Shown one piece after another: positions 19,805 to 47,514 of a stretch of DNA of 64,000 nucleotides. The notes under the pieces are model-generated. The model saw nothing but the letters and a program-made list of their open reading frames with translations. It ran no database searches and was not told the DNA's origin. The translations under genes were made by a program, and so were the position numbers. Where the stretch lies: assembly GCA_031374825.1 (NCBI GenBank), contig JANMGV010000004.1, positions 19,605 through 83,604 of the forward strand, read 5' to 3'. Within the stretch, counting starts at the first letter, position 1. The number at the start of each line of letters is the position of its first letter. This stretch comes from Pirellulaceae bacterium (lineage in GTDB: Bacteria > Planctomycetota > Planctomycetia > Pirellulales > Pirellulaceae).

Positions 19805-20737
19805 TTATACTTCCAGCAATTCCACTTCGAGGCGTGCAGGGATCAGCGAAATGGTTAGTTGCCTAAGGCGATCTTCCGGGCGAGCCAAAATTTCGCCATC
19901 CACGTGAACCGTCAAATCCCAATCCGTTTCGATCTCGATTGTACGACATTGGCCAATCCCAATATCACGATGATTCCGCGGCGTACCGAATAGAGCGATC
20001 CGAGGCAATAATGCCAACGCCCGAAATCGTCCAATGTTGCGCGCGTGAACGTAGTCAAACAAACCATCGTTCATCTGGGCGTCGGGAGCCAACAGAAAAC
20101 TCCCTTCGCGTTTACCGCTCATGACACTGAACAGCAAAGTCTTGTGAGCGACGATTTGATCATCCAACTTGATACGCATCACTTGGGGATTGCTCTTTTT
20201 CAGTGCCCGTATCGTGGCGAGCGTGTAAAGCAAGATTCCTTGCAGATTTGCGATCTTGCGAGACTCAACGGTAACCCGTCCACTTAGACCCGTACCTAGG
20301 CTTTCAATGAAATACTCGGGCTCATGCCCCTCGCGTGTCACTTGCCCGACATCGACATTGAGGCGCCTCGGCGAGTTCGTACTGAGTGTTCCGTTGGAAT
20401 CATGCTCAGAAGTCTTGTTTCGAAGTATCGACCAAGCAAAATCGTTGGCAGAGCCGATCGGTACAACTGCCATGCGTGCATCGGGATTACCGGACTCGAG
20501 AATGCCGCACGCAACTTCGTGAACTGTTCCATCACCACCAGCAGCGGCAATTAGGCGACGACCTGCTGAGGCAGCACTTAGAGCTAACTGGCGTGCGTGT
20601 CCTGGGGCGTTGGTGTGATGAACCTCGATCGTGGATGCATGACGCTCCAAGAACGATTCGACTCGTTTGCGAGCGCGACTTCGACCAGCGTGCGGGTTGA
20701 GGATGAGAAACGTTTTTTCCTCAGAGGTCGAAGTCAT
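19805..20737 (-). CDS. diacylglycerol-kinase-family lipid kinase (YegS/DagK-like)
   Basis: The DAGK catalytic motif GGDGTVHEV is present. Length is 310 aa. Confidence 0.8.
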   Translation of the reverse strand: MTSTSEEKTFLILNPHAGRSRARKRVESFLERHASTIEVHHTNAPGHARQLALSAASAGRRLIAAAGGDGTVHEVACGILESGNPDARMAVVPIGSANDFAWSILRNKTSEHDSNGTLSTNSPRRLNVDVGQVTREGHEPEYFIESLGTGLSGRVTVESRKIANLQGILLYTLATIRALKKSNPQVMRIKLDDQIVAHKTLLFSVMSGKREGSFLLAPDAQMNDGLFDYVHARNIGRFRALALLPRIALFGTPRNHRDIGIGQCRTIEIETDWDLTVHVDGEILARPEDRLRQLTISLIPARLEVELLEV

Positions 20738-20754: not shown

Positions 20755-22140
20755 CTACAAGGACTTGATTGCCTTAACAATATCCAAGACAGCTTGTTGT
20801 CCGTCTGCGTAGTACATGAGCGTATTCGGTAACGCAAACAGTGGATTAGGGATACCAGCGAAACCAGGACTCAAGCTGCGTTTGATCACAATAACCGTTC
20901 GACATTTATCCACTTCGATGATCGGCATTCCCGCGATCGGGCTCTTGGGATCTGTTTTTGCCAACGGGTTCACGACGTCGTTTGCGCCGATCACGATTGC
21001 AACGTCGACTGTGTCCAAGGTCGGATTGATATCATCCATTTCCTTGAGCTTGTCATAGGAAATGTCCGCCTCGGCGAGCAACACATTCATGTGCCCAGGC
21101 ATACGCCCCGCGACAGGATGGATCGCGTACTCGACATTCGTCCCCTTGGATTCGAGCAATTTGCTCAAGTCGCGTACGGCATGCTGAGCTTGAGCGACCG
21201 CCATACCATATCCTGGAACGATGACCACGCGTTGCGCACCATCCAGAATCATCGCAATATCATCTGCACTCGTGCTTCGCACGTTCGCGTAGATTTCATC
21301 GGTCGGAATATTAGTCCCAGTTGCTCCAACGCCAAACAGAACATTGATCAAAGAACGATTCATTGCTTTGCACATGATCTGCGTAAGAATAACTCCAGAC
21401 GCACCAACAAGCGAACCGGCAATTATGAGAGCGTTGTTGTCCAGAACGAACCCCGTCGCCGAACAAGCGAGTCCGGAATAAGAGTTCATCAGAGAGATAA
21501 CGACGGGCATGTCCGCACCGCCAATGGGGTTCACCAAGAACACGCCCAGAGCAGACGAAACAAGAACGATCATTATGTAGCAGAATGATCGCAAGATCAT
21601 GTTTTCAGTCACGACCAAAGGATAGATAAGGATCAATGCAGTCGCCAACAATCCGGCATTGATCCAAATCTGGTGTTTCAAGCTGTAGGGTTTTTTAAAC
21701 TGTTTCCATTCTTCCAATTTGGCGTAGGCAATCAAGCTTCCCCAAAAAGTTACAGCGCCGATCAGACCAGAAAGCCCCACGGCGATCAAGCTGTCCGTGG
21801 CGTGCCCTGGATTTTGCAGCAAGTCGCTTAAAGCAACCAGAGTGGAAGCTCCACCGCCTAAACCATTAAGTAAACCAACTAACTGGGGCATTGCCGTCAT
21901 TTTCACTTTGATCGACATGTAGGCACCAATAACGGTCCCTGCCACAACGCCGATCAGAATAAAAATGTATCCATAAATATTCGGATCGAACAAAGTAACG
22001 ACGATTGCCATCGCCATCCCAAGCCCAGCAATGAGATTTCCTTTGACCGCGCTTCGCGGGTGCGACATGAGCTTGAGGCCGACGATGAACAACACCGAAG
22101 CCACCAAATAGAAAAACGATATGAGGGCTAGTGAATCCAT
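20755..22140 (-). CDS. pntB: NAD(P) transhydrogenase subunit beta
   Basis: There is an N-terminal multi-TM domain followed by a C-terminal NADP(H)-binding domain. Conservation across the full length is typical of PntB. Confidence 0.9.
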   Translation of the reverse strand: MDSLALISFFYLVASVLFIVGLKLMSHPRSAVKGNLIAGLGMAMAIVVTLFDPNIYGYIFILIGVVAGTVIGAYMSIKVKMTAMPQLVGLLNGLGGGASTLVALSDLLQNPGHATDSLIAVGLSGLIGAVTFWGSLIAYAKLEEWKQFKKPYSLKHQIWINAGLLATALILIYPLVVTENMILRSFCYIMIVLVSSALGVFLVNPIGGADMPVVISLMNSYSGLACSATGFVLDNNALIIAGSLVGASGVILTQIMCKAMNRSLINVLFGVGATGTNIPTDEIYANVRSTSADDIAMILDGAQRVVIVPGYGMAVAQAQHAVRDLSKLLESKGTNVEYAIHPVAGRMPGHMNVLLAEADISYDKLKEMDDINPTLDTVDVAIVIGANDVVNPLAKTDPKSPIAGMPIIEVDKCRTVIVIKRSLSPGFAGIPNPLFALPNTLMYYADGQQAVLDIVKAIKSL

Positions 22141-22196
22141 AAAATTGAACTTAGCTTTCTTTCTTGTTTTCTAGATCGATGCTTGAACGAGTGCGT

Positions 22197-22724
22197 TTAA
22201 CGCTTCTTAAACATCTTGAGCATTCGATGCGTCACCATGAAGCCACCGGCAGCATTAATCATCGCAAAGACAACCGCGATCATTCCTAAAAATGCCGCTA
22301 GGCCACCCGACCTATTACCTGCCGCAATCAGGGAACCAACGATCGTGATACCACTTATCGCATTGGAACCGCTCATTAACGGTGTATGCAGCGTGGGTGG
22401 TACTTTGGCAATCACTTCAAATCCAACAAAAACGGATAGTGCAAAAATCGTAAGGCTAAATACCAACGTCCGTAGTCGATTACTTATTGCATGCGGCAAT
22501 TCCTGCCCGTTTGTCTTTTCTATGCTGACCGGATGTGGCGGTGAGGACTCAACAGTCTTGGCGTCGGCAGCTTTTGCTTCGGCGGGGTTTTCCGTTGTCG
22601 CGTCCTGGAATGCGTAGACCGGAATCGATTGATTCACGATCGCGAAAAAGAAACACATGCTCGCAACTGCCTGAGCCATTGAAACGAAGCATCTGTGTTT
22701 TACAAGACTTGGAAAATTTCTCAT
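22197..22724 (-). CDS. pntAB: NAD(P) transhydrogenase subunit alpha part 2 (membrane domain), with N-terminal extension
   Basis: The C-terminal ~100 aa match the PntA dII membrane helices. The N-terminal ~70 aa extension is signal-peptide-like, and the true start is uncertain. Confidence 0.7.
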   Translation of the reverse strand: MRNFPSLVKHRCFVSMAQAVASMCFFFAIVNQSIPVYAFQDATTENPAEAKAADAKTVESSPPHPVSIEKTNGQELPHAISNRLRTLVFSLTIFALSVFVGFEVIAKVPPTLHTPLMSGSNAISGITIVGSLIAAGNRSGGLAAFLGMIAVVFAMINAAGGFMVTHRMLKMFKKR

Positions 22725-22797
22725 GAATTAAACTCTCAGATCAACGGGGCAATATTTACAAACCTAGCCATGACATTTTCGTGCTTTGGATCAATTG

Positions 22798-23997
22798 CTA
22801 GGTCGAAGCTGCGGTAGGTTGAACAGGCGAGGCGACAGGTTCAAGCGGTGTCAGTCCCAACTTGGTACGGATTCGTCCGTTGGTTACTTGACCAGCCTGC
22901 GTCACCATCGTGTCGCGGACGATTTCATCTTGAAGATCGAGAATTAACTCGCCTTTTTTGACCATATTCAAAAGGAATTTTGTCACGTTGTTGCCAAACA
23001 TTTGGCTGGCATGATAAGGTGCGTCGGCAAATATATTGGTGGGTCCCAAAATCGTCACGCCGTTTTCAATCACGCGTTCGTTTGCTTTGGTCAATTCGCA
23101 ATTTCCGCCTCGTTCTGCCGCCAAGTCGATGATTACCGAACCGTTTTGCATTCGGCGGACGGCATCAGCGGTAACGAGTAAAGGTGACTTGACTCCCGGG
23201 ATCGCTGCGGTCGTGATGACGACATCACTCTGAGCCACTTGGCTGGCCATTAACTCACGCTGTTTGCGATAGAACTCTTCGTCCATTGCTTTTGCATATC
23301 CGCCCTTGTCTTCTGCGTTTCCGCTCTCCAAAGGCATCTCAACAAATTTTCCACCAAGGCTTTCGACTTGTTCGCGGCATGCAGGGCGAACGTCGTAAGC
23401 TGAAACGACCGCTCCGAGTTTTCGGGCCGTCGCAATTGCCTGCAGACCGGCAACACCCACACCAATAATAAAAACGCGAGCAGCCGTTAATGTCCCAGCA
23501 GCCGTCATCATCATTGGGAAGAGTTTTGGCAGTTCCATTGCACCCATCAACACGGCTCGATAGCCAGCAATGGTTGCCTGCGATGACAGGATATCCATGC
23601 TTTGCGCGCGGGTGATTCGTGGAATCAATTCCAGAGCAAAAAGTGTCGCGCCGCTTTCAGCAAAATCGGCAATCGCTTGGCTTTCGCCCAATGGGTCACA
23701 AGCTCCGATAACAATGTGGTGATTGCGAAGATATTTTCGGTCAGCCATTGTCGTGGGACCGTTTGCCCCCGCCGCGCGAACTTGCAGAATAATATTGGCA
23801 TCGAAAGCAGCCGCACGATCCGCAACAATTCGAGCACCTTTATCGGCGTAATCTTGATCCAAATACCCAGCGGATCGACCCGCGTTCGATTGAACTTGGA
23901 CCTCTAAACCAGCTTTGATGAGAGCTGGCACGCAGCTTGGAACCAGTGCCACGCGCCGTTCACCGGCCATTTCCTCTTTGACTACAGAAACTTTCAT
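22798..23997 (-). CDS. pntAA: NAD(P) transhydrogenase subunit alpha part 1 (AlaDH/PNT domain)
   Basis: The start MKVSVVKEE... is typical. An AlaDH/PNT Rossmann motif is present (GVGVAGLQA). Confidence 0.9.
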   Translation of the reverse strand: MKVSVVKEEMAGERRVALVPSCVPALIKAGLEVQVQSNAGRSAGYLDQDYADKGARIVADRAAAFDANIILQVRAAGANGPTTMADRKYLRNHHIVIGACDPLGESQAIADFAESGATLFALELIPRITRAQSMDILSSQATIAGYRAVLMGAMELPKLFPMMMTAAGTLTAARVFIIGVGVAGLQAIATARKLGAVVSAYDVRPACREQVESLGGKFVEMPLESGNAEDKGGYAKAMDEEFYRKQRELMASQVAQSDVVITTAAIPGVKSPLLVTADAVRRMQNGSVIIDLAAERGGNCELTKANERVIENGVTILGPTNIFADAPYHASQMFGNNVTKFLLNMVKKGELILDLQDEIVRDTMVTQAGQVTNGRIRTKLGLTPLEPVASPVQPTAAST

Positions 23998-28785: not shown

Positions 28786-30468
28786 TTATGATTTCGAATC
28801 CACTTTCTTAAGCCATTCGATCGCGGCGGGGATGCCTTGTTTGATCATTGGATCGTAGTGATCGCCTGAGGGCACTTCGACGAATTCAACGGCGGGATTG
28901 TTCTTTTTGACGGCCGCAGCAAAGCGTTTTGTCTCCTCGATTGATACGACAGAATCATCTTTGGCTTGAAAAAGAAAGAGAGGTTTGCTCAACGTATTAG
29001 CCAACCGTATCGGCGAATTTTTGCGATCGAATTCAACATACCCAGGCAGTGCCGCACTAATGCCAGGAACGGTCTTGAAGTCCGCATGGAACGCTTCGGG
29101 GTCTGTGCATGGCGCATAAGCAATGCAACCAGCTAATCCCGGAATATGGATCGCGGCGAGGAGGGATACCGTACCGGCAGAGCTATGTCCCGCGGTATAA
29201 ACGCGGTTCAAATTAATTTCCGGCATTTCGCTTTTGATAAAGCGCCACACATTGGAAATATTTGCTCTTCCAGCCTCTGCTTGCTTGAACGCCAAGTATG
29301 ATCTCTGTAACACAATCGTCGATACATTGTCTTGATCAAGGTTTCCGTCAAGCGAATATTGAATCACAGCATAGCCAGCTTGAGCATACGGTAACGTCTC
29401 ATCGTGATAGTCGTCCCCATCCAAACTTGATCCAACTAAAAGGTTTGTTCCTGCCGGGGCAACGAGTATGCAGCCAAGCGAACCCGCGCTGTGATTGTCG
29501 CCTTTGGGCAAGTAAACATTCATTTGGGTATTTTCGCCGGGAGCAATTCCCACGCTTCTCGTACCTCCAAATCGAACACCACCAGCAAGCGTCTTTCTAA
29601 AGTCGGGCCGCTTTGGGATCATTCCCACGGGTGCACCTGGACCGATGTCGCCACCGGGAATACTGGAAGCAGCCATTGGCAATGTACCCGGTCCAATCTG
29701 GTTGCCATTGGATGCCAGCTCACCGTTCGGATCGAATGCTGTGGGCGATCGCATTCGAGAGTTTTCAGAGTCGGAACGCAACTGCATTAAAAATACGACG
29801 CCGATCACCGACCCCAGGAGAACAAGTCCGCCGATCGTCGAGATCGCGATGATCACGACAGTTCGGATTCCTCGCTTCTTCGGAGCCGCAACTGGGAAGT
29901 TTGCCCCGGGAGCGATCGGCCCCGCTGCATACCCGAAAAGATTTGAGGCACCTGCGGGATTGAGCGCATCAAAGGGCGAACCCGTTTGCAGCGACCCTGC
30001 CCACGGGTCGGGTTGCGACGCGGAGATTTGGCCAATACCGAAGGGATCTGACTCGAGTGGTTGCAAACTGGGAATTGTTGGTTGAGCCGAAGGTCGTTGG
30101 CTGGCCGCCGGACGAACAATTTTTGCTGTCGCGGGTTGCGAAGTCTGCGCAACTGGCTTCGCTGTAGGAGTCTTCGAAGCTTGTGACGCTGACCCTGGAA
30201 CGTTGCTTGCCTTCGTCGAAACGGGCTTTGCCGCAGGCGTACGAGTTGCCGATGCATGTTCAGCGGGCGGACGGGGCTTCTGGGGCGAAGCGTTTGATGA
30301 CGAAGTCGAAGGTCCCACTGGCGTTGATGATCGTGCTGATTCAACTTGCCCCGGAACAGGGATCAACTCCGAACAATTTTTGCATCGAACGTATTTACCA
30401 ACCGCCGTATCGGGAGCTTGGTATTTTTTCCCACATGCACAAGTAACCGGGATGGGCATGGCATTCAC
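28786..30468 (-). CDS. membrane-anchored S9/dienelactone-type alpha/beta-hydrolase with N-terminal zinc ribbon and Pro/Ser/Ala-rich linker
   Basis: The N-terminus has a zinc ribbon (CACGKK...CKNCSE). About 150 aa of low complexity follow, then a TM helix. The C-terminal hydrolase has a GHSSAGT nucleophile elbow. Confidence 0.75.
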   Translation of the reverse strand: MNAMPIPVTCACGKKYQAPDTAVGKYVRCKNCSELIPVPGQVESARSSTPVGPSTSSSNASPQKPRPPAEHASATRTPAAKPVSTKASNVPGSASQASKTPTAKPVAQTSQPATAKIVRPAASQRPSAQPTIPSLQPLESDPFGIGQISASQPDPWAGSLQTGSPFDALNPAGASNLFGYAAGPIAPGANFPVAAPKKRGIRTVVIIAISTIGGLVLLGSVIGVVFLMQLRSDSENSRMRSPTAFDPNGELASNGNQIGPGTLPMAASSIPGGDIGPGAPVGMIPKRPDFRKTLAGGVRFGGTRSVGIAPGENTQMNVYLPKGDNHSAGSLGCILVAPAGTNLLVGSSLDGDDYHDETLPYAQAGYAVIQYSLDGNLDQDNVSTIVLQRSYLAFKQAEAGRANISNVWRFIKSEMPEINLNRVYTAGHSSAGTVSLLAAIHIPGLAGCIAYAPCTDPEAFHADFKTVPGISAALPGYVEFDRKNSPIRLANTLSKPLFLFQAKDDSVVSIEETKRFAAAVKKNNPAVEFVEVPSGDHYDPMIKQGIPAAIEWLKKVDSKS

Positions 30469-30605
30469 TCACTCATCACCACAAGGAAACAGACATTCAC
30501 ATGCCAACAATATACACAGCACTCCACCCCGAAAACAACCTTTCGAAATTTCCCCGCTGACAAACGCAGATTTTGTTTTCTTCGAGTGAAACGTCGGCGT
30601 GCTTT

Positions 30606-31175
30606 TCAACTTGATTTGGATTGCAAGTTTGCTATCGCGCCTTCTAATTCGATCTTAACTCCTGCGTCTAACAAGGAAGCGCAAAACTCGCCAACGAGCA
30701 TGCGATAATCCGGACACAATTTGTCTAGGTGCTTGAGGACTTCACGTTCAGTGTCCGAGAGGGGAAGCCGAATGGCTGGAGGGGCATGATTTCCGTGTTG
30801 GTCCAAAAAGCTGTCGCTCACTCCCATCCAAGCGATCTTGGCATGCTCACGCAACCAGGCATAAACAAGAATGTCAGGAGGATCAGCATCTCCTATGAAG
30901 ATAATTGTTGAGGAGGAGTCTTGTATTAACGGCATGTCTCTCATGTCGGGCAGTCCGTAACGCCCGATAACCGCGAGAGGTTGCAGAACGTGTAGCAACA
31001 ATTTTATTCGCGGCAAGCAACCGGGTTTGGTCATATACAAAATCGACTTCGCTGTGTTGAAATCCCCACTCCGTGTGGACAGGTGTTCTTCAGGCATTCT
31101 TGCAAAGTCGCCGTCATCGTGCGATTGAAACCACGCCTCAATCGCGTTGATTCGGTCTTGAGAAGAGGTTTTCAT
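30606..31175 (-). CDS. hypothetical protein
   Basis: This ORF is co-directional with the flanking cluster. I recognise no domain. Confidence 0.45.
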   Translation of the reverse strand: MKTSSQDRINAIEAWFQSHDDGDFARMPEEHLSTRSGDFNTAKSILYMTKPGCLPRIKLLLHVLQPLAVIGRYGLPDMRDMPLIQDSSSTIIFIGDADPPDILVYAWLREHAKIAWMGVSDSFLDQHGNHAPPAIRLPLSDTEREVLKHLDKLCPDYRMLVGEFCASLLDAGVKIELEGAIANLQSKSS

Positions 31176-31346
31176 AGTCGCCTCCTAGCAACCGACTGCT
31201 TTTGGGCATCGAACGCGGGTAGCATGCTCCTCACCACGGATTCCGATGCTCTGCGGCAAGCGGTTGTTCACTACATCTTTGCCTCATTGTGGCTTTGCAA
31301 AAAAGCTCAGGTATGGTGGCCGTTTGACGCTTGCTTCGTAGCGCCA

Positions 31347-32654
31347 TTAATTTGCGTCGACTCCGGAGAGTTGCATTTCTACTTGGTCAGCTTGCCAAGC
31401 GATTGAGGAGATGCTGCGGCTAAGTTCGAGCGCGTCCGTTGTGTCGGCCAACATGTTCGTTCGTAATACGACTTGCTCGCCGTCACCTTGGCGGCGAAGT
31501 GCAAAAGCGCCGTGGACAAGCTGGTCGTTGTAGCGCAGCAAAGTCGTTGCGCTCGATGCATTCATTGGACCACAAACAGACCAAACGGATACTTTGGCGT
31601 TGCCGTCGTTGTCTTTCTGATTGAACTCAACATTGACGCGTTGTCGTCGTGTAGCTCCAAGTGCAACAACAATTACCAAATGGTCATTGTCTTGCGATTC
31701 GATCGACCAACCAGATTGTTTTATGAGATCTTCGACGATCGCCCTCGGGTTGCTTGACGAAGGTAACGCTTTCAACTCGGAAAAATCGAGCCCGGCCTGT
31801 CCACCGCCCGCAGCTTGGCTGGCCTTTTGTCCGATCGCGTTCATCGCCGAAGCGATCATGCCCGGAACCATCATTCCCATGCCAATACCAGCAGCAGAGC
31901 CACCAGCATCGCCAAGTTTTTCCATGCCCTTCGCAGCTTGATAGACCGTAAAGGATCGCAAATCGCCGACCACCGACATGCTGCTACGAGCATCGATGGC
32001 TTTTTGGACTTCTTCCGGTGGCGATATGTTGGAAATCAGGAACTGGTTAAGCTCTAAACCGAACTTTGCAAATTCTGTAGACAATTTGACGCGAGCGGCA
32101 GCGCTCAATTCGTCAAATCTCGCCGGCAGATCGAGCAAGCTGATTCCGGACGTCGCCAGCAAATCCGTGATTGCAGCGACGATGATATCCTTCAAGTAGC
32201 TGCTGACTTCCTCAGTCGTATATTTACCTTGGGTGCCAATCAACGTGTTGATTAACAATTCCGAGTCGACGACACGAAAAGCGAACTTGCCGTAACCGCG
32301 CAATCGCACGATTCCAAAATCTTTGTCGCGCAGCGTAAACGGTTGGCGAGTTCCCCAGCGTTCATCTGCGAAAAGATGTTTACCGATAAAGTACACGCAG
32401 GCTTGGAAAGGCGATTTTTCCCAAGGTGACGTGAGGATTCGCGTGATGATGGGGACGTTTGCGGTGGTCAGTGTGTATCGACCCGGTCCAAATCGGTCCA
32501 TGGCGCGGCCATCTCGAAAGAAGACAGCTTCTTGGTTTTGCTGGACGATCAGTTGCGCGCCGTACTGAATAGCCGCTGTTCCAGACTCTGGAACACGTGC
32601 AACGATGGCTTGATTGGAATTGTCTACAAAGTCGATAACTTCAAGTCGAAACAC
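31347..32654 (-). CDS. SPFH/band-7-like COG4260-family protein with C-terminal YbjN-like domain
   Basis: The N-terminus MFRLEVIDFVDNSNQAIVARVPESG...GAQLIVQQNQEAVFFRDGRAMDRFGPGRYTLTT matches the COG4260 (putative virion core protein-like, SPFH fold) signature. It is followed by a Gly/Ala-rich linker and a C-terminal alpha/beta domain. Confidence 0.65.
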   Translation of the reverse strand: MFRLEVIDFVDNSNQAIVARVPESGTAAIQYGAQLIVQQNQEAVFFRDGRAMDRFGPGRYTLTTANVPIITRILTSPWEKSPFQACVYFIGKHLFADERWGTRQPFTLRDKDFGIVRLRGYGKFAFRVVDSELLINTLIGTQGKYTTEEVSSYLKDIIVAAITDLLATSGISLLDLPARFDELSAAARVKLSTEFAKFGLELNQFLISNISPPEEVQKAIDARSSMSVVGDLRSFTVYQAAKGMEKLGDAGGSAAGIGMGMMVPGMIASAMNAIGQKASQAAGGGQAGLDFSELKALPSSSNPRAIVEDLIKQSGWSIESQDNDHLVIVVALGATRRQRVNVEFNQKDNDGNAKVSVWSVCGPMNASSATTLLRYNDQLVHGAFALRRQGDGEQVVLRTNMLADTTDALELSRSISSIAWQADQVEMQLSGVDAN

Positions 32655-32714
32655 CGTGACACCCTTTAACGAAAATTCAATTCACCGTAGGTACAGTTTT
32701 AGCAAACCGACTGA

Positions 32715-33200
32715 TCATTCGCGATCTTGCAAGGTCGCTTGACGGCGACTGAAGCGATCAGACAGTAATGTGACCATTTCCTCTGCCAGATTCCAGTCGA
32801 TATCGGCCGCTGCATCTTTTGGCGCCACAGCTTGTTGCAGTCGATCGACGACGCCGATTAGGTTTTCATCCATGTCGGCGATTTCTTTGAGCAGAGATTC
32901 GTCGACTTGTCGTTCGTCGAACCACGAAGCGTATCCTTCGACCGCAGCTCGCAATCGATTCTGTTGCAATTCAATTTTGTGACGCAACTTTTCGCTTTTG
33001 GCGACAGCATCCAAGTTGCCTTGCTCGACGAGTGGCAGCGTCTTCTTCTCAAGACTTACTTTGCATTCTTGTAATCGTCGCGCCAAAAACTCTCTGGTCA
33101 ATCGATCGTCTTCGCGACGTTTTTCTTTTTTTGCGTATCCGCCGAAACCAGGAATATACTTGGTCAAACTTTCGAGCGCGTTGGATTTCTCTTTGGACAT
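32715..33200 (-). CDS. hypothetical coiled-coil protein
   Basis: The ORF is Lys/Glu-rich and helical. It sits directly downstream of the FAAL-ACP-AOS gene. Confidence 0.45.
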   Translation of the reverse strand: MSKEKSNALESLTKYIPGFGGYAKKEKRREDDRLTREFLARRLQECKVSLEKKTLPLVEQGNLDAVAKSEKLRHKIELQQNRLRAAVEGYASWFDERQVDESLLKEIADMDENLIGVVDRLQQAVAPKDAAADIDWNLAEEMVTLLSDRFSRRQATLQDRE

Positions 33201-33218
33201 GAATCATGCAGTCTTGCG

Positions 33219-36200
33219 TTAAGAACGAGAAGCAGCAACGGCCGGGGATGACGCGATGCTGGGAGCTTGCGGGTATCGAAAAAGTTCTGGTGCTATCTTT
33301 TTCAAATACTCCGCAGTCTTTTCTACCACGAACATGATCTGCTCTTTGGAATGCGTGCAGTTGATAAAGAATCGCAATCGCGCGGCCGATTCCTCGACTG
33401 CGGGATACAGAATCGGCAATACGTTTACACCTGCTTTGTAGAGCATGTGCGACAACTGGAGAGCATGCATCGAGTTGCCGATAATGATCGGAACTACAGG
33501 CGTGTCGTGGCTGTGTCCAGTGTTCAGTCCACGTTTTCTCGCTTCGGAGAGAAACAGTGCCGACATCTCTCGCAATCGTTCAACACGCTCGGGTTGACGC
33601 GACAGCACTTCTACGGACTTGAGGGCGGCAGCAGTGTTTGGTGGGGACAGTCCGACGCTGAACACAAATCCTGGTGCGGTGTATTTGAGGTACTCGACCA
33701 AGCTCTTGCTGCCAGCGATGTATCCACCGCAGGAGCCAAACGACTTGCTCAGCGTACCCATCCATACGTCGACCTCGCGCGGATCGACGCCGAAGTGTTC
33801 GCCAATTCCTCGACCCGTTTTGCCCATCGTTCCGATGGAGTGGGCTTCGTCGACCATCAACCAGCATTTGTGCTTTTTCTTGACTTCGATGAATTTCGGT
33901 AGATCCGGATAATCCCCGTCCATGCTATAGACGCCTTCGACAATCACCAGCACGCGGCGATGCTTGCGACGGAGTTGGGTAAGGGCTTCGTCCAACGCTT
34001 GCCAATCATTGTGCGGGAAAGGTCGCCGGCGAGCGCCGCTCAGAATCGCACCTTGCACAATGCTGTTATGCGAGAGAGCATCGTGCAATATCAAGTCGCC
34101 AGGACCAACCATATGGCCTATGACCGTTTCATTCGTGGAATGTCCACCGACCAAGACCACGGAGTCCTCTGCCCCAACCCAGTTCGCAAGCGCGATTTCC
34201 AACTTGCGATGGATGTCCTTTTCGCCCGCGACGAGTCGCGAAGCGGAAACGCTGGTCCCGTATTTCTTGACGGCATTCACGACAGCATCGGAAACTTCTT
34301 GATCTCCGCTCATGCCCAAGTAGTTGTAGCTGGCAAAGCTGATCATTTCGCGACCATCGATCATCGTCGTGTCGCGCGTGATACCTTGATGGGCGGAGAA
34401 ATAAGGATTCGGCAGGCCGCTCAACTCAAACTGCACCATCGTTTGTTTAAGGCGACGGTACTCAGGTAGTTTGTCGAATTCATAATCTTCTGGACCGATC
34501 GTTCGTTCAAGCTCTTCGGTCGTACCCAAATCCAAAGCTGCGGAAGTTTGCATTCGGTCTTTGCCGAAGTGGGTTTCGAGCGCTTCGGCGACTTCACGAA
34601 CGGTCTCAATTTCTTGCAAGACTTCTTCGGGGAACCGTCCTCCAAAGGCACTTTCCAACATGTGCGAGATCTGCAAGCGTTCCAAACTATCGAGTCCCAA
34701 GTCCAGCACGATGTTGGTGTCGAGTTCAAGCGACTTGGCCCGCTCTTGTGCGACAGTCTTGATGGCTTTCTTGACAAGCTCGACGATTTGCGGATTAGGG
34801 TCTTTCGATTTCTTTCCGATTTTTGGCGTATAGCGTCCCGAGCCCCCGCTGCCATCGAATACTGCGGCAGCAATCATCGGGGCTTGTTCGTAGAGCCCTT
34901 CTTGCCAGCTTTCCCATTTGGCAACGATCTTGAGATTGCCGTCTAAATAGTCGCGCAAGCAAGCGTGCCTCTGGATTTTTCCGCTTGAGGTTTTTGGCAA
35001 TGAGCCGAAGCGAACCAAGTAGACTGCATCCGGAGGAAGTTCGTGGACTTGGGTAACGCTGCGACGAATCGTATGAATGACAGGCTCCCAATCGTCCTCC
35101 AAGCTTCGTTGAACTTCGACGGCAATGATCAGTTTTTCACGACCTGTTGTCGCGTCGGCAAAAGCGGCTGCGGCACAAGACGGAATCGATTCGTGACACT
35201 CTTCGACCGTTTGCTCGATGTCTTGCGGATAGCGATTAACGCCACGAACGATAATCAGATCCTTGACACGCCCTGCGATGAACAATTGACCTTTGTCGAA
35301 AAATCCTAAGTCGCCTGTACGCAGGAACGGCCCTCGTCCGTCACTCAACCTACCTCCGAACGTCGATTGCGTTTCTTCTGCTTTTTCCCAATAGCCGAGG
35401 CCCACGCTAGGGCTTTGTACCCAAATTTCGCCGATTCGTCCTTCGGGCAGATCTTGATAAGTATCCAGATCGACGATGCAAATGGTCTCGCCGGGCAATA
35501 CCGTGCCGCAGCCAACGAGCTGCCGGACATGATCGCTGTCTTCGGTGGCTGGCGCAACGACACGACCATCAAGCTGTCGTGAATCAAAGGTTTCGACAAC
35601 TGGCAATTCACGAGCAGGACCACCGGTAACGATCAACGTTGTTTCAGCCATACCATAACACGGAAAATGAGCTTTGTGGGTAAATCCAACGCAACCAAAT
35701 TTTTCGGAGAATTGAGCGAGCGTCGAGGCGCGGACGGGTTCGGCACCGTTGAACGCAACTTCCCAACTAGAAAGGTCGAGACCTTGCATCTCTTCGTCGG
35801 TAACTTTATCGACACACAATTGATAGGCAAAGTTGGGTCCGCCCGTCGTGGTGACTCGGTATTTTGAAATCATGCGAAGCCAGCGAACGGGCTTTTGCAA
35901 AAACGACATCGGACTCATCAAGACCGTGGAGCGACCAAGATATAGCGGATTCAAAATACCGCCGATCAAGCCCATGTCGTGATAAGCTGGCAACCAACTG
36001 GCGCCTTTGACTTGGCGATGGTGACCGAATGCAACCGTAATAAGTTCGGCGTTTCGAATCAGATTTGCGTGACTGAGCATCACGCCTTTCGGTCTTCCTG
36101 TCGAACCCGACGTGTATTGCAATACCGCTAAGTGACTGGGGTCAATCGCTACAGGATTGAATTGGGATGCTTGTTGTTTGTCGGTACTGTCAGTTGTGAT

Positions 36201-36647
36201 CAGTTGCATTTTGCCGACGCGCAATTGCTCTTCTTCGCTTTCGATGAGCTGGCGGCTGTTGTCCACGGACAAAATAAAGGTAGCTTGGCAGTCGGCTGCA
36301 ATTCCGGCGATGCGGGAACCGCGTTTATTACGTCGTGGTGGGAAAGCAGGAACGGCAATGCAACCGGCGTACAAGCACCCGAAAAAACCGACTACGAATT
36401 CTAGGCCGGGGGGGAACATCAAAATCCCGCGATCACCCGGTTCGGCAAATCGTTGAATTTCAGCCGCTACGGCTCGTGCGCGCAAATCTAGCTCGGCGTA
36501 GGTCAGCTTTTCTTCTGATCCTTCGTCGCCATCAGTAAAATAGAGGGCCACATCATTGGGAATGTGTTTCACCCAATACCGGATTACATCAACCAAACCC
36601 GTGCGAGGTGGGTCGTACGGAGCCATGTATCGCGTTAAATCAAGCAC
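33219..36647 (-). CDS. tri-domain fusion: fatty acyl-AMP ligase (FAAL) - acyl carrier protein - alpha-oxoamine synthase (8-amino-7-oxononanoate synthase / serine palmitoyltransferase family, PLP-dependent)
   Basis: The N-terminal ~580 aa are FAAL-like (LTYAELDLRARAVAAEIQ..., GDRGILMFPPGLEFVVGFFGCLYAGCIAVP, TSGSTGRPKGV). The ACP domain has a phosphopantetheine attachment site (LGLDSLERLQISHMLE). The C-terminal ~400 aa are AOS-like (SFASYNYLGMSGD, HSIGTMGKTGRG). The PLP-lysine motif is GTLSKSFGSCGGY. Confidence 0.9.
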   Translation of the reverse strand: MLDLTRYMAPYDPPRTGLVDVIRYWVKHIPNDVALYFTDGDEGSEEKLTYAELDLRARAVAAEIQRFAEPGDRGILMFPPGLEFVVGFFGCLYAGCIAVPAFPPRRNKRGSRIAGIAADCQATFILSVDNSRQLIESEEEQLRVGKMQLITTDSTDKQQASQFNPVAIDPSHLAVLQYTSGSTGRPKGVMLSHANLIRNAELITVAFGHHRQVKGASWLPAYHDMGLIGGILNPLYLGRSTVLMSPMSFLQKPVRWLRMISKYRVTTTGGPNFAYQLCVDKVTDEEMQGLDLSSWEVAFNGAEPVRASTLAQFSEKFGCVGFTHKAHFPCYGMAETTLIVTGGPARELPVVETFDSRQLDGRVVAPATEDSDHVRQLVGCGTVLPGETICIVDLDTYQDLPEGRIGEIWVQSPSVGLGYWEKAEETQSTFGGRLSDGRGPFLRTGDLGFFDKGQLFIAGRVKDLIIVRGVNRYPQDIEQTVEECHESIPSCAAAAFADATTGREKLIIAVEVQRSLEDDWEPVIHTIRRSVTQVHELPPDAVYLVRFGSLPKTSSGKIQRHACLRDYLDGNLKIVAKWESWQEGLYEQAPMIAAAVFDGSGGSGRYTPKIGKKSKDPNPQIVELVKKAIKTVAQERAKSLELDTNIVLDLGLDSLERLQISHMLESAFGGRFPEEVLQEIETVREVAEALETHFGKDRMQTSAALDLGTTEELERTIGPEDYEFDKLPEYRRLKQTMVQFELSGLPNPYFSAHQGITRDTTMIDGREMISFASYNYLGMSGDQEVSDAVVNAVKKYGTSVSASRLVAGEKDIHRKLEIALANWVGAEDSVVLVGGHSTNETVIGHMVGPGDLILHDALSHNSIVQGAILSGARRRPFPHNDWQALDEALTQLRRKHRRVLVIVEGVYSMDGDYPDLPKFIEVKKKHKCWLMVDEAHSIGTMGKTGRGIGEHFGVDPREVDVWMGTLSKSFGSCGGYIAGSKSLVEYLKYTAPGFVFSVGLSPPNTAAALKSVEVLSRQPERVERLREMSALFLSEARKRGLNTGHSHDTPVVPIIIGNSMHALQLSHMLYKAGVNVLPILYPAVEESAARLRFFINCTHSKEQIMFVVEKTAEYLKKIAPELFRYPQAPSIASSPAVAASRS

Positions 36648-36885
36648 AAATTCCCTCGCGCTTTCGACGAATAAAAACCAAAATCACATTGTTGGCTTTG
36701 GGTCGGAAAGTTAATTGTTTGAAACTTAACAGAATTGGCTAATTCGAAAAGGTAAATTTCAAGGTTCGACCGAAACGTTCCAGATGCAAACCGCAACTAA
36801 GCCGACTTGTCGACTTAGATTCTCCAAAAACAACCTAAATTAGCGTAATCTTTGCGATCCAGTTCATGCAAGCCGATCAGTCGGG

Positions 36886-37647
36886 CTAATTTCCCTTGAA
36901 AAGGTCGGTATTCTGCACCTTTTCTTCCATGCCTTCACTGTCTTGTTTTTCGTCAGAACGTGGCTTGACCATCTTGCTAATAGTCGAAAACCAACCTTGT
37001 TTCTGCTTTCTTAATCTTCCACGGCGATTTGTTTGCCAAATCTGCCTATTTTCGACGTCCAAAGCGGTCAGCCAGCCTCCTCCAAAACAATACGTATCAA
37101 TGCAAACTAAATGACCGTAATCGGCGATTTTACCCCACAACTGTGGAGTATGACCACAAAACGCCGTTTTGTCATTGATGTGCGGGCCGGGTGGAGAAGG
37201 TCCAAGATGCTCCCAGTACAAGATTTCGGCTGGCAGTTCGGATAGCGGGGTTATTGGGTCGTAATTCGCATGAACAAAGAAATATTTGTCCATCTCGTAG
37301 TACGGCAAACATGTCCTAAAAAAATCGATATGCGACTGTGGGATAAGATCAATTCCGCCGTAACTGTATAAAGTTTCTTGACCGCCAATTGACTTCCAAG
37401 TTTCCAGATCGCAGGCTTGGTCAAGGCAAGCCAGCAAGACGATTTCGTGATTGCCCAGCAAGAATACGCAACGACATTGGGATCGCAATTCAATCAGAGT
37501 CTCGATCACGGCTTTCGATTCCGGCCCACGATCGACGTAGTCCCCTAAGAAGATAAGTTGGTCTTCTTGCTGTGGCGCAACGTGTTTGAGCAGAGCATTC
37601 AATGCCACACTACAACCATGAATGTCACCGATAGCAATAGTTCGCAA
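36886..37647 (-). CDS. metallophosphoesterase (PPP-family Ser/Thr phosphatase / ApaH-like)
   Basis: The calcineurin-like phosphoesterase motifs GDIHG, GDYVDRG and GNHE are present. Confidence 0.8.
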   Translation of the reverse strand: MRTIAIGDIHGCSVALNALLKHVAPQQEDQLIFLGDYVDRGPESKAVIETLIELRSQCRCVFLLGNHEIVLLACLDQACDLETWKSIGGQETLYSYGGIDLIPQSHIDFFRTCLPYYEMDKYFFVHANYDPITPLSELPAEILYWEHLGPSPPGPHINDKTAFCGHTPQLWGKIADYGHLVCIDTYCFGGGWLTALDVENRQIWQTNRRGRLRKQKQGWFSTISKMVKPRSDEKQDSEGMEEKVQNTDLFKGN

Positions 37648-37659
37648 AGGAGTAGACCG

Positions 37660-38211
37660 CTAATTGCAGTTGGGGTTGTTCGGAATACTGTGGCGTGGAA
37701 CACCTTGGGAGATAATGTCGCGGCCAACTTTGTTCATCAATACTTGCCAAATCTCGTTGCAGGGTCCAAAAAGTTCATCGGCAGTGATCTCGGCAACTAA
37801 CCAACCTCCGGCCGCCAGTTCATCATCCAATTGCCCGGGCCCCCAACCGGAATAGCCAGCGAACACTCGTACTCTCACATTAGGTTCTTTGGCGAGTTGC
37901 ACGAGATGCGATTCGCTTGAACTGAGATATACTCCGTGTATGCAAGGTATGTCTCCGAGCGGTTCGTTGTCGTGTAGAGCCAATATCGGACCCTCGACTG
38001 GTCCGCCTTGATATATCAGCAACTCTTGCGTGCAATCGATATGGCAAAGCTCCTCGAGAATCGGATTCAATTTCTGATCGGTTGGTCGGTTGATCAGCAC
38101 TCCAAAGGCTTCTGATTCGTCATGCCGCACGATAAAGACGACCGAACGAAAAAAATTTGGGTCTTCCAAATGGGGCGACGCAATCAAGCACTTGCCTTCT
38201 ATGCTGTTCAT
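37660..38211 (-). CDS. YqgE/AlgH family protein (UPF0301)
   Basis: CLIASPHLEDPNFFRSVVFIVRHDESEAFGVLINRP is a typical YqgE/AlgH N-terminus. Confidence 0.8.
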   Translation of the reverse strand: MNSIEGKCLIASPHLEDPNFFRSVVFIVRHDESEAFGVLINRPTDQKLNPILEELCHIDCTQELLIYQGGPVEGPILALHDNEPLGDIPCIHGVYLSSSESHLVQLAKEPNVRVRVFAGYSGWGPGQLDDELAAGGWLVAEITADELFGPCNEIWQVLMNKVGRDIISQGVPRHSIPNNPNCN

Positions 38212-38282
38212 GATTGATCGCGCTTTTGCTAAAGCGTTTCAAGGTTCGTTGAAATTCAAAACCGTCACCTACTGGATGCGAC

Positions 38283-39293
38283 TCAATGGCTGGGGCGATA
38301 CGTTTCTCGCCATTCACATCCTGCCCACGACCATCCTACTCCGAAGCCAACGAGCATGGAAAGCTGCTCAGGGCGAATTTCCTTGGACTGCCGCATTTCG
38401 CTGATCAAGATTGGCAGGGTGCTCGAAACAGTATTGCCGCAATGTTTTAATCGGATGGGCATCTTGGCGGTATCGATTCCAATCGCTTCGCGAAGCTGTA
38501 CCAGCATCTTGGCAGTGGCTTGATGCATGAGAAGATGATCGTAATCATCCAATTTGCGATCGGTGGCCGACAAGACTTGACCAATAAGTTTTGGAACAGC
38601 ATCGACCGTGAAGTTAATGAGACTAGGTCCGTCCATGTATAGACGACTGGACCAGCGTTTGCGATGCCGTGGTCGGATTGCGTCTTCTTGGGCGCGTGAC
38701 CCACCGTCCGCAACTATCAGAGTATCAGCGCCACTACCATCCGTCCCGAAACGAAATCCCGTTAAGCTTTTCTCGTCCGATGCGGAAACTAAAGTGGCGG
38801 CGGCCGCATCGCCAAATATTGTCCTTAACGACCGATCGTCGGGCGAAATATATTTTGAGTAGGTTTCACTGGTCAGGAAGAGGATATTTCGCGCTTGCCC
38901 GCTCTGAATCAAACCTTCACAAAGCGACAATCCGTAGATGTATCCAGAGCACCCAAGATTGAAGTCGAGTGCACCCGCACGCGTTGGAATTCCTAATCGA
39001 TCTTGAATCAAGCAGGCCGTGGTCGGCAATGGATAGTCAGGCGTCTGGGTACACAGCAAAATAAAATCGATGTCGCTGGGAAGGATGCCGTTTACTGAAA
39101 ATAATTTCCTCGCTGCCGCGACCGCCAGATCGGAGGCCGTTTCGCGAGGTGCCGCAATGTAACGAGAAGCGATTCCCGTTTTCTGCTCGATCAGCGGCAA
39201 ATCCCAATCAGGAAATTCGCCTTGAAGCGATTCATTCGTTTCGCACCGCTCGGGAAAGTGAACGGCTATGGGTCCAATATTGGCAAACGGCAC
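38283..39293 (-). CDS. 3-oxoacyl-ACP synthase III (FabH)-like condensing enzyme
   Basis: The KAS III fold is present. Catalytic Cys (LGCSGYIYGL), His (LMHQAT) and Asn (HCGNTVSS) are all in place. Length is 336 aa. Confidence 0.8.
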   Translation of the reverse strand: MPFANIGPIAVHFPERCETNESLQGEFPDWDLPLIEQKTGIASRYIAAPRETASDLAVAAARKLFSVNGILPSDIDFILLCTQTPDYPLPTTACLIQDRLGIPTRAGALDFNLGCSGYIYGLSLCEGLIQSGQARNILFLTSETYSKYISPDDRSLRTIFGDAAAATLVSASDEKSLTGFRFGTDGSGADTLIVADGGSRAQEDAIRPRHRKRWSSRLYMDGPSLINFTVDAVPKLIGQVLSATDRKLDDYDHLLMHQATAKMLVQLREAIGIDTAKMPIRLKHCGNTVSSTLPILISEMRQSKEIRPEQLSMLVGFGVGWSWAGCEWRETYRPSH

Positions 39294-46698: not shown

Positions 46699-47514
46699 TA
46701 TGAAAATTCTCGCACTCGACCTTGGCAAACTCAATACGATGTGCTGCTTTTTTGAATCGAAAACGCGTAAACACACCTTTCACAACGCTGCAACAGGCCG
46801 AAACTACCTGGAGACCGTGTTCAAAAAATACAAAATCGACATGGTCGCCACGGAAGCCGATTGAAGTGTGAATTCAGAATTGCGAAGTGTGAAACGTCGA
46901 AGTGTCACCAGGCGAGAGGCGTCAAACTTCAAACTTCAAACTTCAAACTTCAAACTTCAAACAAGGACAATGCCCTCAAACTTGCTCGCATGGCCTCCAT
47001 GAACGAACTCAAAGCCGTCCATATGCCCAGCGAAGAACATCGCGAGTTCCGGTCGCTGGTCAAGAACCGTAAAACACTCGACTACCGCATCAACAAGATG
47101 AAATGCACCATACGCGCTTGGTTCGGCAATCATGGCATCACGATTGACGCAGGCGATAAAGTTTGGCACACGGGACGCCAACTCATCGACTCCTTCCGCA
47201 AACCGTTTGTCGACTGCTCCGCAAACGAACTTTGGAAAGGCAAACTCGACATCGAACTAACCCAACTCGATGCACTCACCACACAACTTGACATCGTAGT
47301 CAAGAAACTCGAAGCCATCGGCAAGAAAGATCCACGCATCGCGCGAGTCCAAACGATCCCCGGCGTTGGACCACGAACCGCCGAAATCCTCGTTGCATGT
47401 ATCGACAATCCGCACCGCTTTGAGAACGGTCGCCAAGTATCCGCCTACTTTGGACTGATACCCCGCCAATACCAATCCGGTGAAACGGACCGCAACGGTC
47501 GCATCAAACTGTAA
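46699..47514 (+). pseudogene. IS110-family transposase, interrupted (internal ~40 codons replaced, frame broken)
   Basis: Compared with intact IS110 transposases, the DEDD-domain segment between ...DMVATEA and LKLA..MNELKAVHMPSEEHREFR is missing and replaced. Confidence 0.65.
46923..46955. repeat. (CAAACTT)n heptanucleotide microsatellite, ~4.7 units, inside the IS110 transposase pseudogene
   Basis: The sequence reads caaacttcaaacttcaaacttcaaacttcaaac. Confidence 0.9.

Follow-up and report, generated by a model that had tools for sequence, protein, structure and literature searches.

Organization of the locus

A 64,000-nucleotide stretch of the genome of a Pirellulaceae bacterium (Planctomycetota; contig JANMGV010000004.1, positions 19,605 to 83,604), hereafter the window, encodes a protein in which a fatty acyl-AMP ligase (FAAL), an acyl carrier protein (ACP) domain, and an alpha-oxoamine synthase (AOS) that depends on pyridoxal phosphate (PLP) are joined in one polypeptide (Table 1). 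It is reasonably probable that this protein, encoded by a stand-alone gene in Pirellulaceae, is a self-contained enzyme that loads, carries, and condenses an acyl chain to give a 3-ketosphinganine-like base. The window itself is an ordinary stretch of planctomycete chromosome with DUF1501, PSCyt2/PSD1, pntAB, G6PD, and NhaA genes, and its nearest public relative is a Pirellulaceae metagenome-assembled genome (MAG) of 99% identity. A model that had read the letters of this stretch (the original prediction) placed the fusion gene at the center of an eight-gene, co-directional biosynthetic cluster. All eight open reading frames (ORFs) were found where it had placed them, on the minus strand, and its labels agree with the Pfam assignments (FabH-like, AlgH, phosphoesterase, fusion, SPFH, and S9).

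Table 1. Features of the window, with positions counted from its first nucleotide.
Feature	Position	Strand	Evidence or remark
FabH-like beta-ketoacyl-ACP synthase III (KAS III), 336 amino acids (aa)	38283-39293	-	Pfam ACP_syn_III and ACP_syn_III_C; NCBIfam match
YqgE/AlgH (DUF179)	37660-38211	-	Pfam E=9e-37
Metallophosphoesterase, ApaH-like N-terminus	36886-37647	-	Pfam Metallophos and NCBIfam
FAAL–ACP–AOS fusion, 1142 aa, GTG start	33219-36647	-	Pfam and NCBIfam domains
Fusion: FAAL domain, residues 1-582	34902-36647	-	AMP-binding E=1e-71 and DIP2-like C-domain
Fusion: carrier (ACP/PP-binding) domain, residues 624-690	34578-34778	-	PP-binding E=3.7e-11
Fusion: DSL motif, residues 653-655	34683-34691	-	translation
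Fusion: phosphopantetheine serine Ser654	34686-34688	-	
Fusion: AOS domain, residues 767-1107	33327-34349	-	Aminotran_1_2 E=5e-49
Fusion: GTLSKSFG	33735-33758	-	
Fusion: PLP lysine Lys968	33744-33746	-	
161-aa helical-bundle protein	32715-33200	-	no Pfam family; weak LIMLP_15305 match
SPFH protein, YbjN/CesT-like C-terminal region	31347-32654	-	Pfam Band_7_1 E=1.6e-64
189-aa ORF	30606-31175	-	no Pfam or NCBIfam match
Zn-ribbon/low-complexity/transmembrane/S9-type alpha/beta hydrolase	28786-30468	-	Peptidase_S9 E=4.5e-7
BPL/LplA-family ligase	12501-13319		unlinked
YegS-type lipid kinase	19805-20737	-	DAGK_cat and YegS_C
pntAB transhydrogenase genes	20755-23997		
217-aa ORF, probably a truncated or mis-started transposase	46861-47514	+	Transposase_20, partial match

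Domain architecture of the fusion protein

The Pfam domains of the fusion protein follow one another in the order AMP-binding (residues 25-420), DIP2-like AMP C-domain (463-576), PP-binding (624-690), and Aminotran_1_2 (767-1107), and its N-terminus aligns from residue 1 in relatives. In 121 close homologues, the residues checked (Asp653, His860, Asp933, His936, Thr965, and Lys968) show no variation, and 66 representatives of 33-51% identity have at least 90% conservation of Asp653, Ser654, His860, Asp933, Lys968, and Arg1092. Judged by these domains and residues, all three parts of the fusion protein are intact. The same evidence bears out the reading of FAAL, ACP, and AOS functions in one polypeptide, for which a Pfam/hidden Markov model scan returned AMP-binding, PP-binding, and Aminotran_1_2, with the FAAL insertion present.

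The activating domain carries the ANL adenylation core motifs YTSGSTG (at residue 178), GDLG (445), and SSGKIQR (554). Its top match among solved structures is the FAAL of a Synechococcus olefin synthase (7r7e; 538 bits and, by eye from the alignment, approximately 50% identity), and the other top matches (a Legionella FAAL, 3kxw; FadD32, FadD23, and FadD28) are all FAALs. Relative to E. coli FadD, it contains a FAAL-specific insertion of approximately 25 residues (residues ~345-385), which is common to 7r7e. The motifs, insertion, and matches identify the activating domain as a genuine fatty acyl-AMP ligase, and the fused carrier domain predicts that the acyl group is likely transferred to a carrier protein rather than to coenzyme A (CoA). 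Prediction of the acyl chain length from FAAL similarity was dropped because FAAL phylogeny does not track it (FAALPred paper, PMC12820801). In the carrier domain, the DSL phosphopantetheine attachment site of the original prediction was recovered by translation, with both Asp653 and Ser654 conserved.

Affinities of the condensing domain

Residues of the AOS domain were mapped by alignment to the serine palmitoyltransferase (SPT) of S. multivorum (SmSPT), LCB2a, and SPTLC2, with the residue roles taken from the SmSPT literature (PMC10196870). His138, Asp210, His213, Thr241, and Lys244 of SmSPT correspond to His860, Asp933, His936, Thr965, and Lys968 of the fusion protein, respectively. The alpha-oxoamine synthase signature is complete, comprising the PLP lysine Lys968, the stacking His860, Asp933 to the pyridine nitrogen, His936 to O3', and the carboxylate-binding Arg1092. 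Lys968 lies in the GTLSKSFG motif, as had been predicted, and the presence and invariance of both Lys968 and His860 in the 121 homologues dispose of a degenerate C-terminal domain, the first of two objections that the original prediction had raised against itself. The SYNYLG motif (residues 773-778) is identical to the LCB2 form. A near-identical MGT(F/L)(T/S)KSFGSCGGYIAGSK stretch is also shared by the AOS domain of the window (33219-34349) and the LCB2 subunits 7yjk_B and 6m4n_B.

No solved structure is more closely related to the AOS domain than those of eukaryotic LCB2 subunits, which no bacterial SPT outscores. The best score was obtained with Arabidopsis LCB2a (254 bits, 36.5% identity), followed by human SPTLC2 (231 bits, 37%), SmSPT (229 bits, 33%), Thermus AOS (222 bits), E. 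coli Kbl (195 bits, 32%), Sphingomonas SPT and cysteate acyltransferase (about 170 bits), and BioF and 5-aminolevulinate synthase (ALAS; about 162 bits, with 32% identity for E. coli BioF). In a neighbor-joining (NJ) tree of 96 fused AOS domains and five references (LCB2a, SPTLC2, SmSPT, E. coli Kbl, and E. coli BioF), the proven SPTs lie inside the assemblage of fused domains, with Kbl and BioF outside it. When a 54-sequence subset was bootstrapped, 98% of replicates united the AOS domain of the window and LCB2 with Kbl left outside, a grouping that leaves out SmSPT in 97%, and 70% united it and SmSPT with Kbl left outside.

In the SmSPT structures, the contacts to the serine hydroxyl come from the PLP phosphate and from water rather than from a diagnostic side chain (PMC10196870). 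Because of this mode of binding, sequence cannot decide the serine specificity of the AOS domain, and a search for serine-specific residues was given up since the SmSPT structures offer no diagnostic residue. From its affinities, the AOS domain is classed as SPT-like, with serine as the most likely substrate, and glycine or alanine would also be possible.

Proposed mechanism and product

Based on the domains, catalytic residues, and family relationships described above, a possible mechanism was proposed, in which the substrates, chain length, product, and physiological role are predictions. The FAAL domain would adenylate a free fatty acid and hand the acyl group over to the phosphopantetheine on Ser654, in the carrier domain of the same polypeptide, which would require a phosphopantetheinyl transferase encoded elsewhere. 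The AOS domain, which presumably dimerizes as other members of its family do, may form an external aldimine with an amino acid, most likely L-serine, and could then perform a decarboxylative Claisen condensation on the acyl-S-carrier thioester to give a 2-amino-3-keto long-chain product. Since formation of the C–C bond itself would free the product, no thioesterase would be needed. With serine and a long-chain acid as substrates, the product would resemble 3-ketosphinganine, and the downstream reduction and acylation steps would have to be encoded elsewhere in the genome. This sphingoid-base reading is favored. The chemistry foreseen by the original prediction, the joining of an activated acyl chain and an amino acid into an alpha-aminoketone, fits all of the sequence tests; the cluster partners that it supplied did not hold, as described below.

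If a 3-ketosphinganine-like base is indeed made, an abundant aquatic phylum would join the bacterial sphingolipid producers via a compact, CoA-independent, single-protein route. This would help to interpret the Spt-like genes counted in metagenomes, which a Black Sea study found in 138 Planctomycetota MAGs (PMC11334938). The fusion protein could furthermore be used as a biocatalyst for aminoketones from free fatty acids, as has been done with the fused enzyme BioWF.

Several points weigh against the sphingoid-base reading. The identity of the AOS domain to SPTs is only a few points above that to Kbl and BioF, and the tree is an NJ tree with five references, without ALAS, CqsA, alphaproteobacterial SPT, or capnine synthase. 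In this tree, RedL-type proteins of the architecture FAAL-ACP-ketosynthase (KS)-acyltransferase (AT)-ACP-AOS, whose AOS domains use glycine, interleave with the tri-domain proteins. The AOS domain reaches no curated NCBIfam equivalog cut-off, scoring 312 bits against a cut-off of 640 with the SPT-CFB model, 274 against 500 with SPT-beta, 201 against 670 with SPT-alpha (NF047600, NF047599, and NF047603 being the SPT models scored), 355 against 426 with bioF TIGR00858, 292 against 460 with Kbl, and 164 against 428 with the CqsA-type model NF005526. To our knowledge, no sphingolipid has been reported from cultured Pirellula. No gene for lipid tailoring, such as a CerR-like reductase or a bCerS-like acyltransferase, adjoins the fusion gene, neither bCerS nor CerR was found in the 64-kb window, and the acyl chain length is unreadable from FAAL similarity (PMC12820801). 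Placed against BioF, SPT, CqsA, and Kbl, the domain falls on the SPT side by its bootstrapped grouping with LCB2 over Kbl and short of the curated SPT and CqsA cut-offs. A CqsA/LqsA-type autoinducer synthase was given little weight in view of the NF005526 score.

The bioF model is the top NCBIfam model for the C-terminal domain, and the fusion protein might on this account be a biotin-pathway enzyme that condenses pimelate with alanine to 8-amino-7-oxononanoate, analogous to BioWF. Relatives are named "8-amino-7-oxononanoate synthase/acyl carrier protein" by the Joint Genome Institute (JGI), natural BioW-BioF fusions exist and are active (PMC9544090), and core-gene-like conservation would suit a vitamin pathway. 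However, the score stays under the bioF cut-off, E. coli BioF is the most distant reference and lies outside the clade, and the activating domain is a FAAL with its insertion and not BioW (no Pfam BioW match). Furthermore, characterized FAALs all activate fatty acids (PMC12820801), and neither the window nor any relative has bioA, bioB, or bioD nearby, the window having only an unlinked BPL/LplA-family ligase. A biotin-pathway role is therefore extremely improbable. With the bioF cut-off missed, no biotin genes nearby, and an architecture other than that of BioWF, the second objection, that the gene is an ordinary fused bioF-type gene in a biotin operon, falls as well.

Genomic context in Pirellulales

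The conservation of the neighboring genes was assessed in 49 Pirellulales loci, including two complete genomes, which were searched by tblastn for each window neighbor. The FabH-like, AlgH, and phosphoesterase genes are all upstream of the fusion gene only in L001, a locus of 99% identity and hence of the same species. L002, whose fusion is 78% identical, already has different upstream genes, and the 189-aa ORF and the S9 hydrolase gave no tblastn match in related loci. Clustering of all locus ORFs showed that the usual flank consists of rplM and rpsI, which lie divergently upstream of the fusion gene in approximately 30 loci, and that a Rex-type repressor gene lies directly downstream in approximately 15. 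The remaining flanks contain GlmS, AccB, CutA, PfkB kinase, or TrmB genes, and fusion homologues at 61-66% identity again have unrelated neighbors. By this comparison, the fusion in Pirellulaceae behaves as a vertically inherited stand-alone gene.

These results bear directly on the model of the original prediction, in which the eight co-directional genes form one lipid-biosynthetic operon, with FabH supplying the acyl chain and the hydrolase or phosphoesterase processing the product. The genes do share one strand with gaps of only 12-238 bp (the largest upstream of the fusion gene), and FabH and the fusion protein are both lipid-related. In addition, a DUF179/AlgH gene (L057:7045-7599) lies 400 bp upstream of, and co-directional with, a 61%-identical fusion, so that a weak recurrence of the AlgH-fusion adjacency is seen in two lineages, and a DLH/S9-like hydrolase gene follows the fusion in L058. 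Nevertheless, the neighborhood is retained only in the 99%-identical L001 and is already replaced upstream in L002, two of its genes are unmatched in related loci, and a dedicated KAS III would be unneeded because FAAL uses free fatty acids. A promoter/terminator scan of 28.5-39.7 kb gave counts at or below shuffled expectation, so it lends the model nothing above background and in itself says nothing on operon structure. The operon model is largely refuted by the synteny analysis and is now very improbable, and comparative genomics does not support the FabH-like, YqgE/AlgH, phosphoesterase, 189-aa, and S9 hydrolase genes as partners. The co-directional neighbors in the window lie outside the pathway of the fusion protein, perhaps with the exception of the 161-aa and SPFH genes. 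The eight-gene cluster was suggested by co-directionality alone, and comparative genomics dissolves it.

Regarding the outer genes of the run, the FabH-like protein scores 243.6 bits, just short of the PRK09352 FabH cut-off of 249, and motifs that may hold its active-site Cys, His, and Asn (GCSGY, HQAT, and GNT) were read by eye in the sequence. Inspection of the S9 hydrolase sequence revealed an N-terminal CxxC...CxxC motif, a long low-complexity region, and a hydrophobic segment.

A gap of 18 bp separates the fusion gene from the 161-aa gene downstream. The latter is directly 3' of the fusion in L002, L068 (73% identity), and L048 (52%), and 300-900 bases downstream in L003, L044, and L049 (69%); an SPFH gene lies downstream in L002, L003, L044, and L049. 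One or both of these genes recur in six of the examined loci, and they are the only window neighbors to recur downstream of the fusion; the 161-aa gene alone does so next to the fusion in distant relatives. The 161-aa family comprises 31 homologues, the few taxon-named ones being from Pirellulales or Pirellulaceae, with the invariant residues P17, RR28-29, DD31-32, G89-Y90, and W93. Its structure model (predicted local distance difference test score, 85) is a generic helical bundle with no PDB fold match at E<=0.001. The family also occurs without the fusion, namely with SPFH in L069, beside KS and ACP genes in L070, and alone in L067, and the 161-aa and SPFH pair is at most loosely linked to the fusion.

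As a further-reaching and tentative proposal, the synthesis of sphingoid-type long-chain bases might belong to the core membrane-lipid functions of Pirellulaceae, by a single polypeptide and from free fatty acids, and the carrier-fused AOS clade might be the nearest prokaryotic relative of LCB2. If so, the recurrent pair of a helical 161-aa protein and a flotillin-like SPFH protein would hint at a connection with lipid microdomains, and the fusion would represent a new enzymatic format that bears on the origin of eukaryotic serine palmitoyltransferase. What could make the protein more important is its placement near LCB2 and a possible core function in Pirellulaceae.

Distribution and neighbors in the wider family

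A search of 5.8 billion proteins yielded more than 120 full-length fusion homologues with 60-99% identity and the same domain set, of which the named ones are from Pirellula, Pirellulaceae, or Planctomycetales. An exhaustive search of 50%-identity representatives found 96 proteins with a window-type AOS domain among the best 150; 65 of the 96 have the tri-domain length of 1000-1300 aa with a C-terminal AOS domain, and 28 are longer. The layout of the distant tri-domain set was judged by length, C-terminal AOS, and conservation of the DSL and Lys columns, and four long relatives were scanned with Pfam. Besides Planctomycetota, tri-domain homologues are named from Okeania (Cyanobacteria) and Anaerolineae (Chloroflexota), and an occurrence in Bacteroidota is taken from the literature. 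A 2013 survey lists proteins of the type A-CP-PLP2 (AOS) from Microscilla marina (A1ZVW4), Blastopirellula marina (A3ZWL3), and Synechococcus PCC 7002 (B1XHP8) (PMC3870968). Full-text literature searches found no biochemically characterized FAAL-ACP-AOS tri-domain protein, the literature on related proteins consisting of the 2013 catalogue, the BioWF work, and the metagenome survey of Spt-like genes. The fusion is a widespread, already catalogued, and biochemically uncharacterized protein type to which the window gene adds one member. The rarity ascribed to the three-way fusion is accordingly at odds with its more than 120 homologues and 65 representatives of tri-domain length, and its presumed novelty in a planctomycete with the Blastopirellula example.

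The four longer relatives have the architectures FAAL-ACP-KS-AT-ACP-AOS (P0137), FAAL-ACAD-ACP-AOS (P0125), FAAL-luciferase-like-ACP-AOS (P0128), and FAAL-ACP-AOS-FAAL-ACP-Aminotran_3 (P0121, a metagenome protein of 2624 aa). The first AOS domain of P0121 is 59% identical to that of the window. Judging from its domain order, P0121 would apparently form an aminoketone and then act on a second acyl chain via its class-III aminotransferase.

Some distant members head gene runs of their own. In an Anaerolineae MAG (JAGRBZ010000249.1; L072:392-11845), a tri-domain FAAL-ACP-AOS gene, whose product and the window protein share 35% identity, is the first of a co-directional run that continues with KS, small ACP, second FAAL-ACP, DAGK_cat/YegS lipid kinase, and CTP_transf_1 (CdsA-like) enzyme genes; an ABC transporter gene lies upstream. 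The run has the appearance of a full route to a phosphorylated aminolipid with two chains, and the pair of kinase and CdsA-like enzyme suggests a phospholipid-type end product. None of the partners seen at the distant loci accompanies the fusion gene within the 64-kb window, where the sole remote echo is a DAGK_cat and YegS_C lipid kinase gene approximately 12.5 kb from the fusion gene, the product of which is 27% identical to the L072 kinase; it adjoins the pntAB transhydrogenase genes (Table 1).

A reductase gene is a further recurrent neighbor. A 3beta-HSD/epimerase-type reductase gene (L074:11271-12272) lies 7 bp downstream of a tri-domain gene, and an extended short-chain dehydrogenase/reductase (SDR) gene of the 3beta-HSD/Epimerase/NmrA type lies divergently upstream of the fusion in two Pirellulales loci (L068:1225-2208 and L048:7095-8084), so that such a gene adjoins the tri-domain gene in three separate lineages. 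No homologue of this SDR was found in the 64-kb window. Bacterial CerR is an NDUFA9-like extended SDR (PMC11087976), and a ketoreductase beside an aminoketone synthase fits the needs of a pathway that converts a 3-keto to a 3-hydroxy long-chain base. As co-localizations rather than proofs, the neighbors of the distant family members are in line with the scheme of reduction, acylation, and phosphorylation in bacterial sphingolipid synthesis (PMC11087976) and support a long-chain-base lipid as the product.

Other loci point elsewhere. In Okeania sp. (JAAHGF010000028.1; L073:6927-18047), a divergent TetR gene lies upstream of the tri-domain gene, which is followed downstream by Sulfotransfer_3, classical SDR, acyl-CoA dehydrogenase, SBF transporter, and alpha/beta hydrolase genes; the locus is a candidate for the synthesis of a sulfated amino-alcohol lipid. 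The fusion in L071 is accompanied by a PhyH-type dioxygenase, a P450, and a classical SDR, and both loci look more like natural-product clusters. The window enzyme could by the same chemistry use glycine, alanine, or another amino acid, and its product could be a small lipidic secondary metabolite or signal, with a pyrrole, a pyrazine, an amino-alcohol sulfate, or an alpha-hydroxyketone-type autoinducer as the end product. Consistent with this, the closest AOS domains (45-58% identity) include those of the assembly-line proteins P0137, P0125, P0128, and P0121, and most FAALs reside in secondary-metabolite clusters (PMC12820801). In contrast, the Pirellulaceae gene is conserved over its full length at 60-80% identity in dozens of species and lies amid ribosomal-protein and other housekeeping genes without tailoring or export genes, which is typical of core metabolism and not of a mobile cluster. 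The low score with the CqsA-type model and the grouping of the AOS domain with LCB2-type SPTs argue in the same direction, and a secondary metabolite is regarded as a possible but rather unlikely product.

Comparison with known systems

The A-CP-PLP2 proteins of the 2013 survey have the same three-domain order as the fusion protein, and one of them is from a planctomycete, the likeness being one of described architecture alone. The AOS domain of B1XHP8 was modeled on SmSPT at 42% identity, and the survey is a bioinformatic catalogue without substrate, product, or physiological role (PMC3870968).

The predicted chemistry of the sphingoid-base reading is that of the Caulobacter-type start of sphingolipid synthesis, in which a fatty acid is first loaded on a carrier at the expense of ATP and then condensed with an amino acid, in a PLP-dependent step, to a 3-keto long-chain base (PMC11087976). 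In Caulobacter, acyl-ACP synthetase, a dedicated ACP, and Spt are separate proteins followed by bCerS and CerR (PMC11087976), whereas the window combines the first three functions in one polypeptide. The NDUFA9/epimerase-type extended-SDR genes beside some family members add to the likeness. However, no bCerS or CerR homologue lies nearby in the window, the cut-offs of the alpha- and beta-proteobacterial SPT models are missed, and the AOS domain has a nearer relative in eukaryotic LCB2 than in Sphingomonas SPT (254 vs about 171 bits). LCB2/SPTLC2 and SmSPT (PDB 7yjk, 6m4n, and 8guh/3a2b) are the best solved matches and have equivalent PLP-binding and substrate-anchoring residues at only 33-37% identity. 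They take acyl-CoA as stand-alone enzymes or membrane heterodimers, whereas the window enzyme has activating and carrier domains of its own on the same polypeptide.

Polyketide synthase and nonribosomal peptide synthetase-type lines that end in an AOS domain include RedL, PigH, and SxtA, and the RedL-type architecture FAAL-ACP-KS-AT-ACP-AOS was confirmed here for P0137. Such lines share FAAL loading, a carrier-tethered acyl group, and terminal release by AOS with the window protein, and their AOS domains, at 45-58% identity, interleave with that of the window in the tree. Lacking the KS-AT extension module, the window protein would be a minimal version that condenses the fatty acyl chain directly.

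The nearest characterized fusion is BioWF from Corynebacterium amycolatum and Desulfosporosinus orientis, in which an acid-activating enzyme is likewise fused to an AOS (PMC9544090). In vitro, BioWF converts fatty acids and Ala, Ser, or Gly to aminoketones (PMC9544090). In contrast to the window protein, with its FAAL and tethered carrier, BioWF uses BioW, which is not an ANL/FAAL enzyme, forms a diffusible acyl-CoA, has no carrier domain, and occurs in a biotin context.

Apart from these systems, the C-terminal end of the product of the 217-aa ORF on the plus strand of the window matches only positions 3-57 of the 87 positions of the Transposase_20 (IS110/IS116/IS902) model, and this ORF is probably a truncated or mis-started transposase gene.

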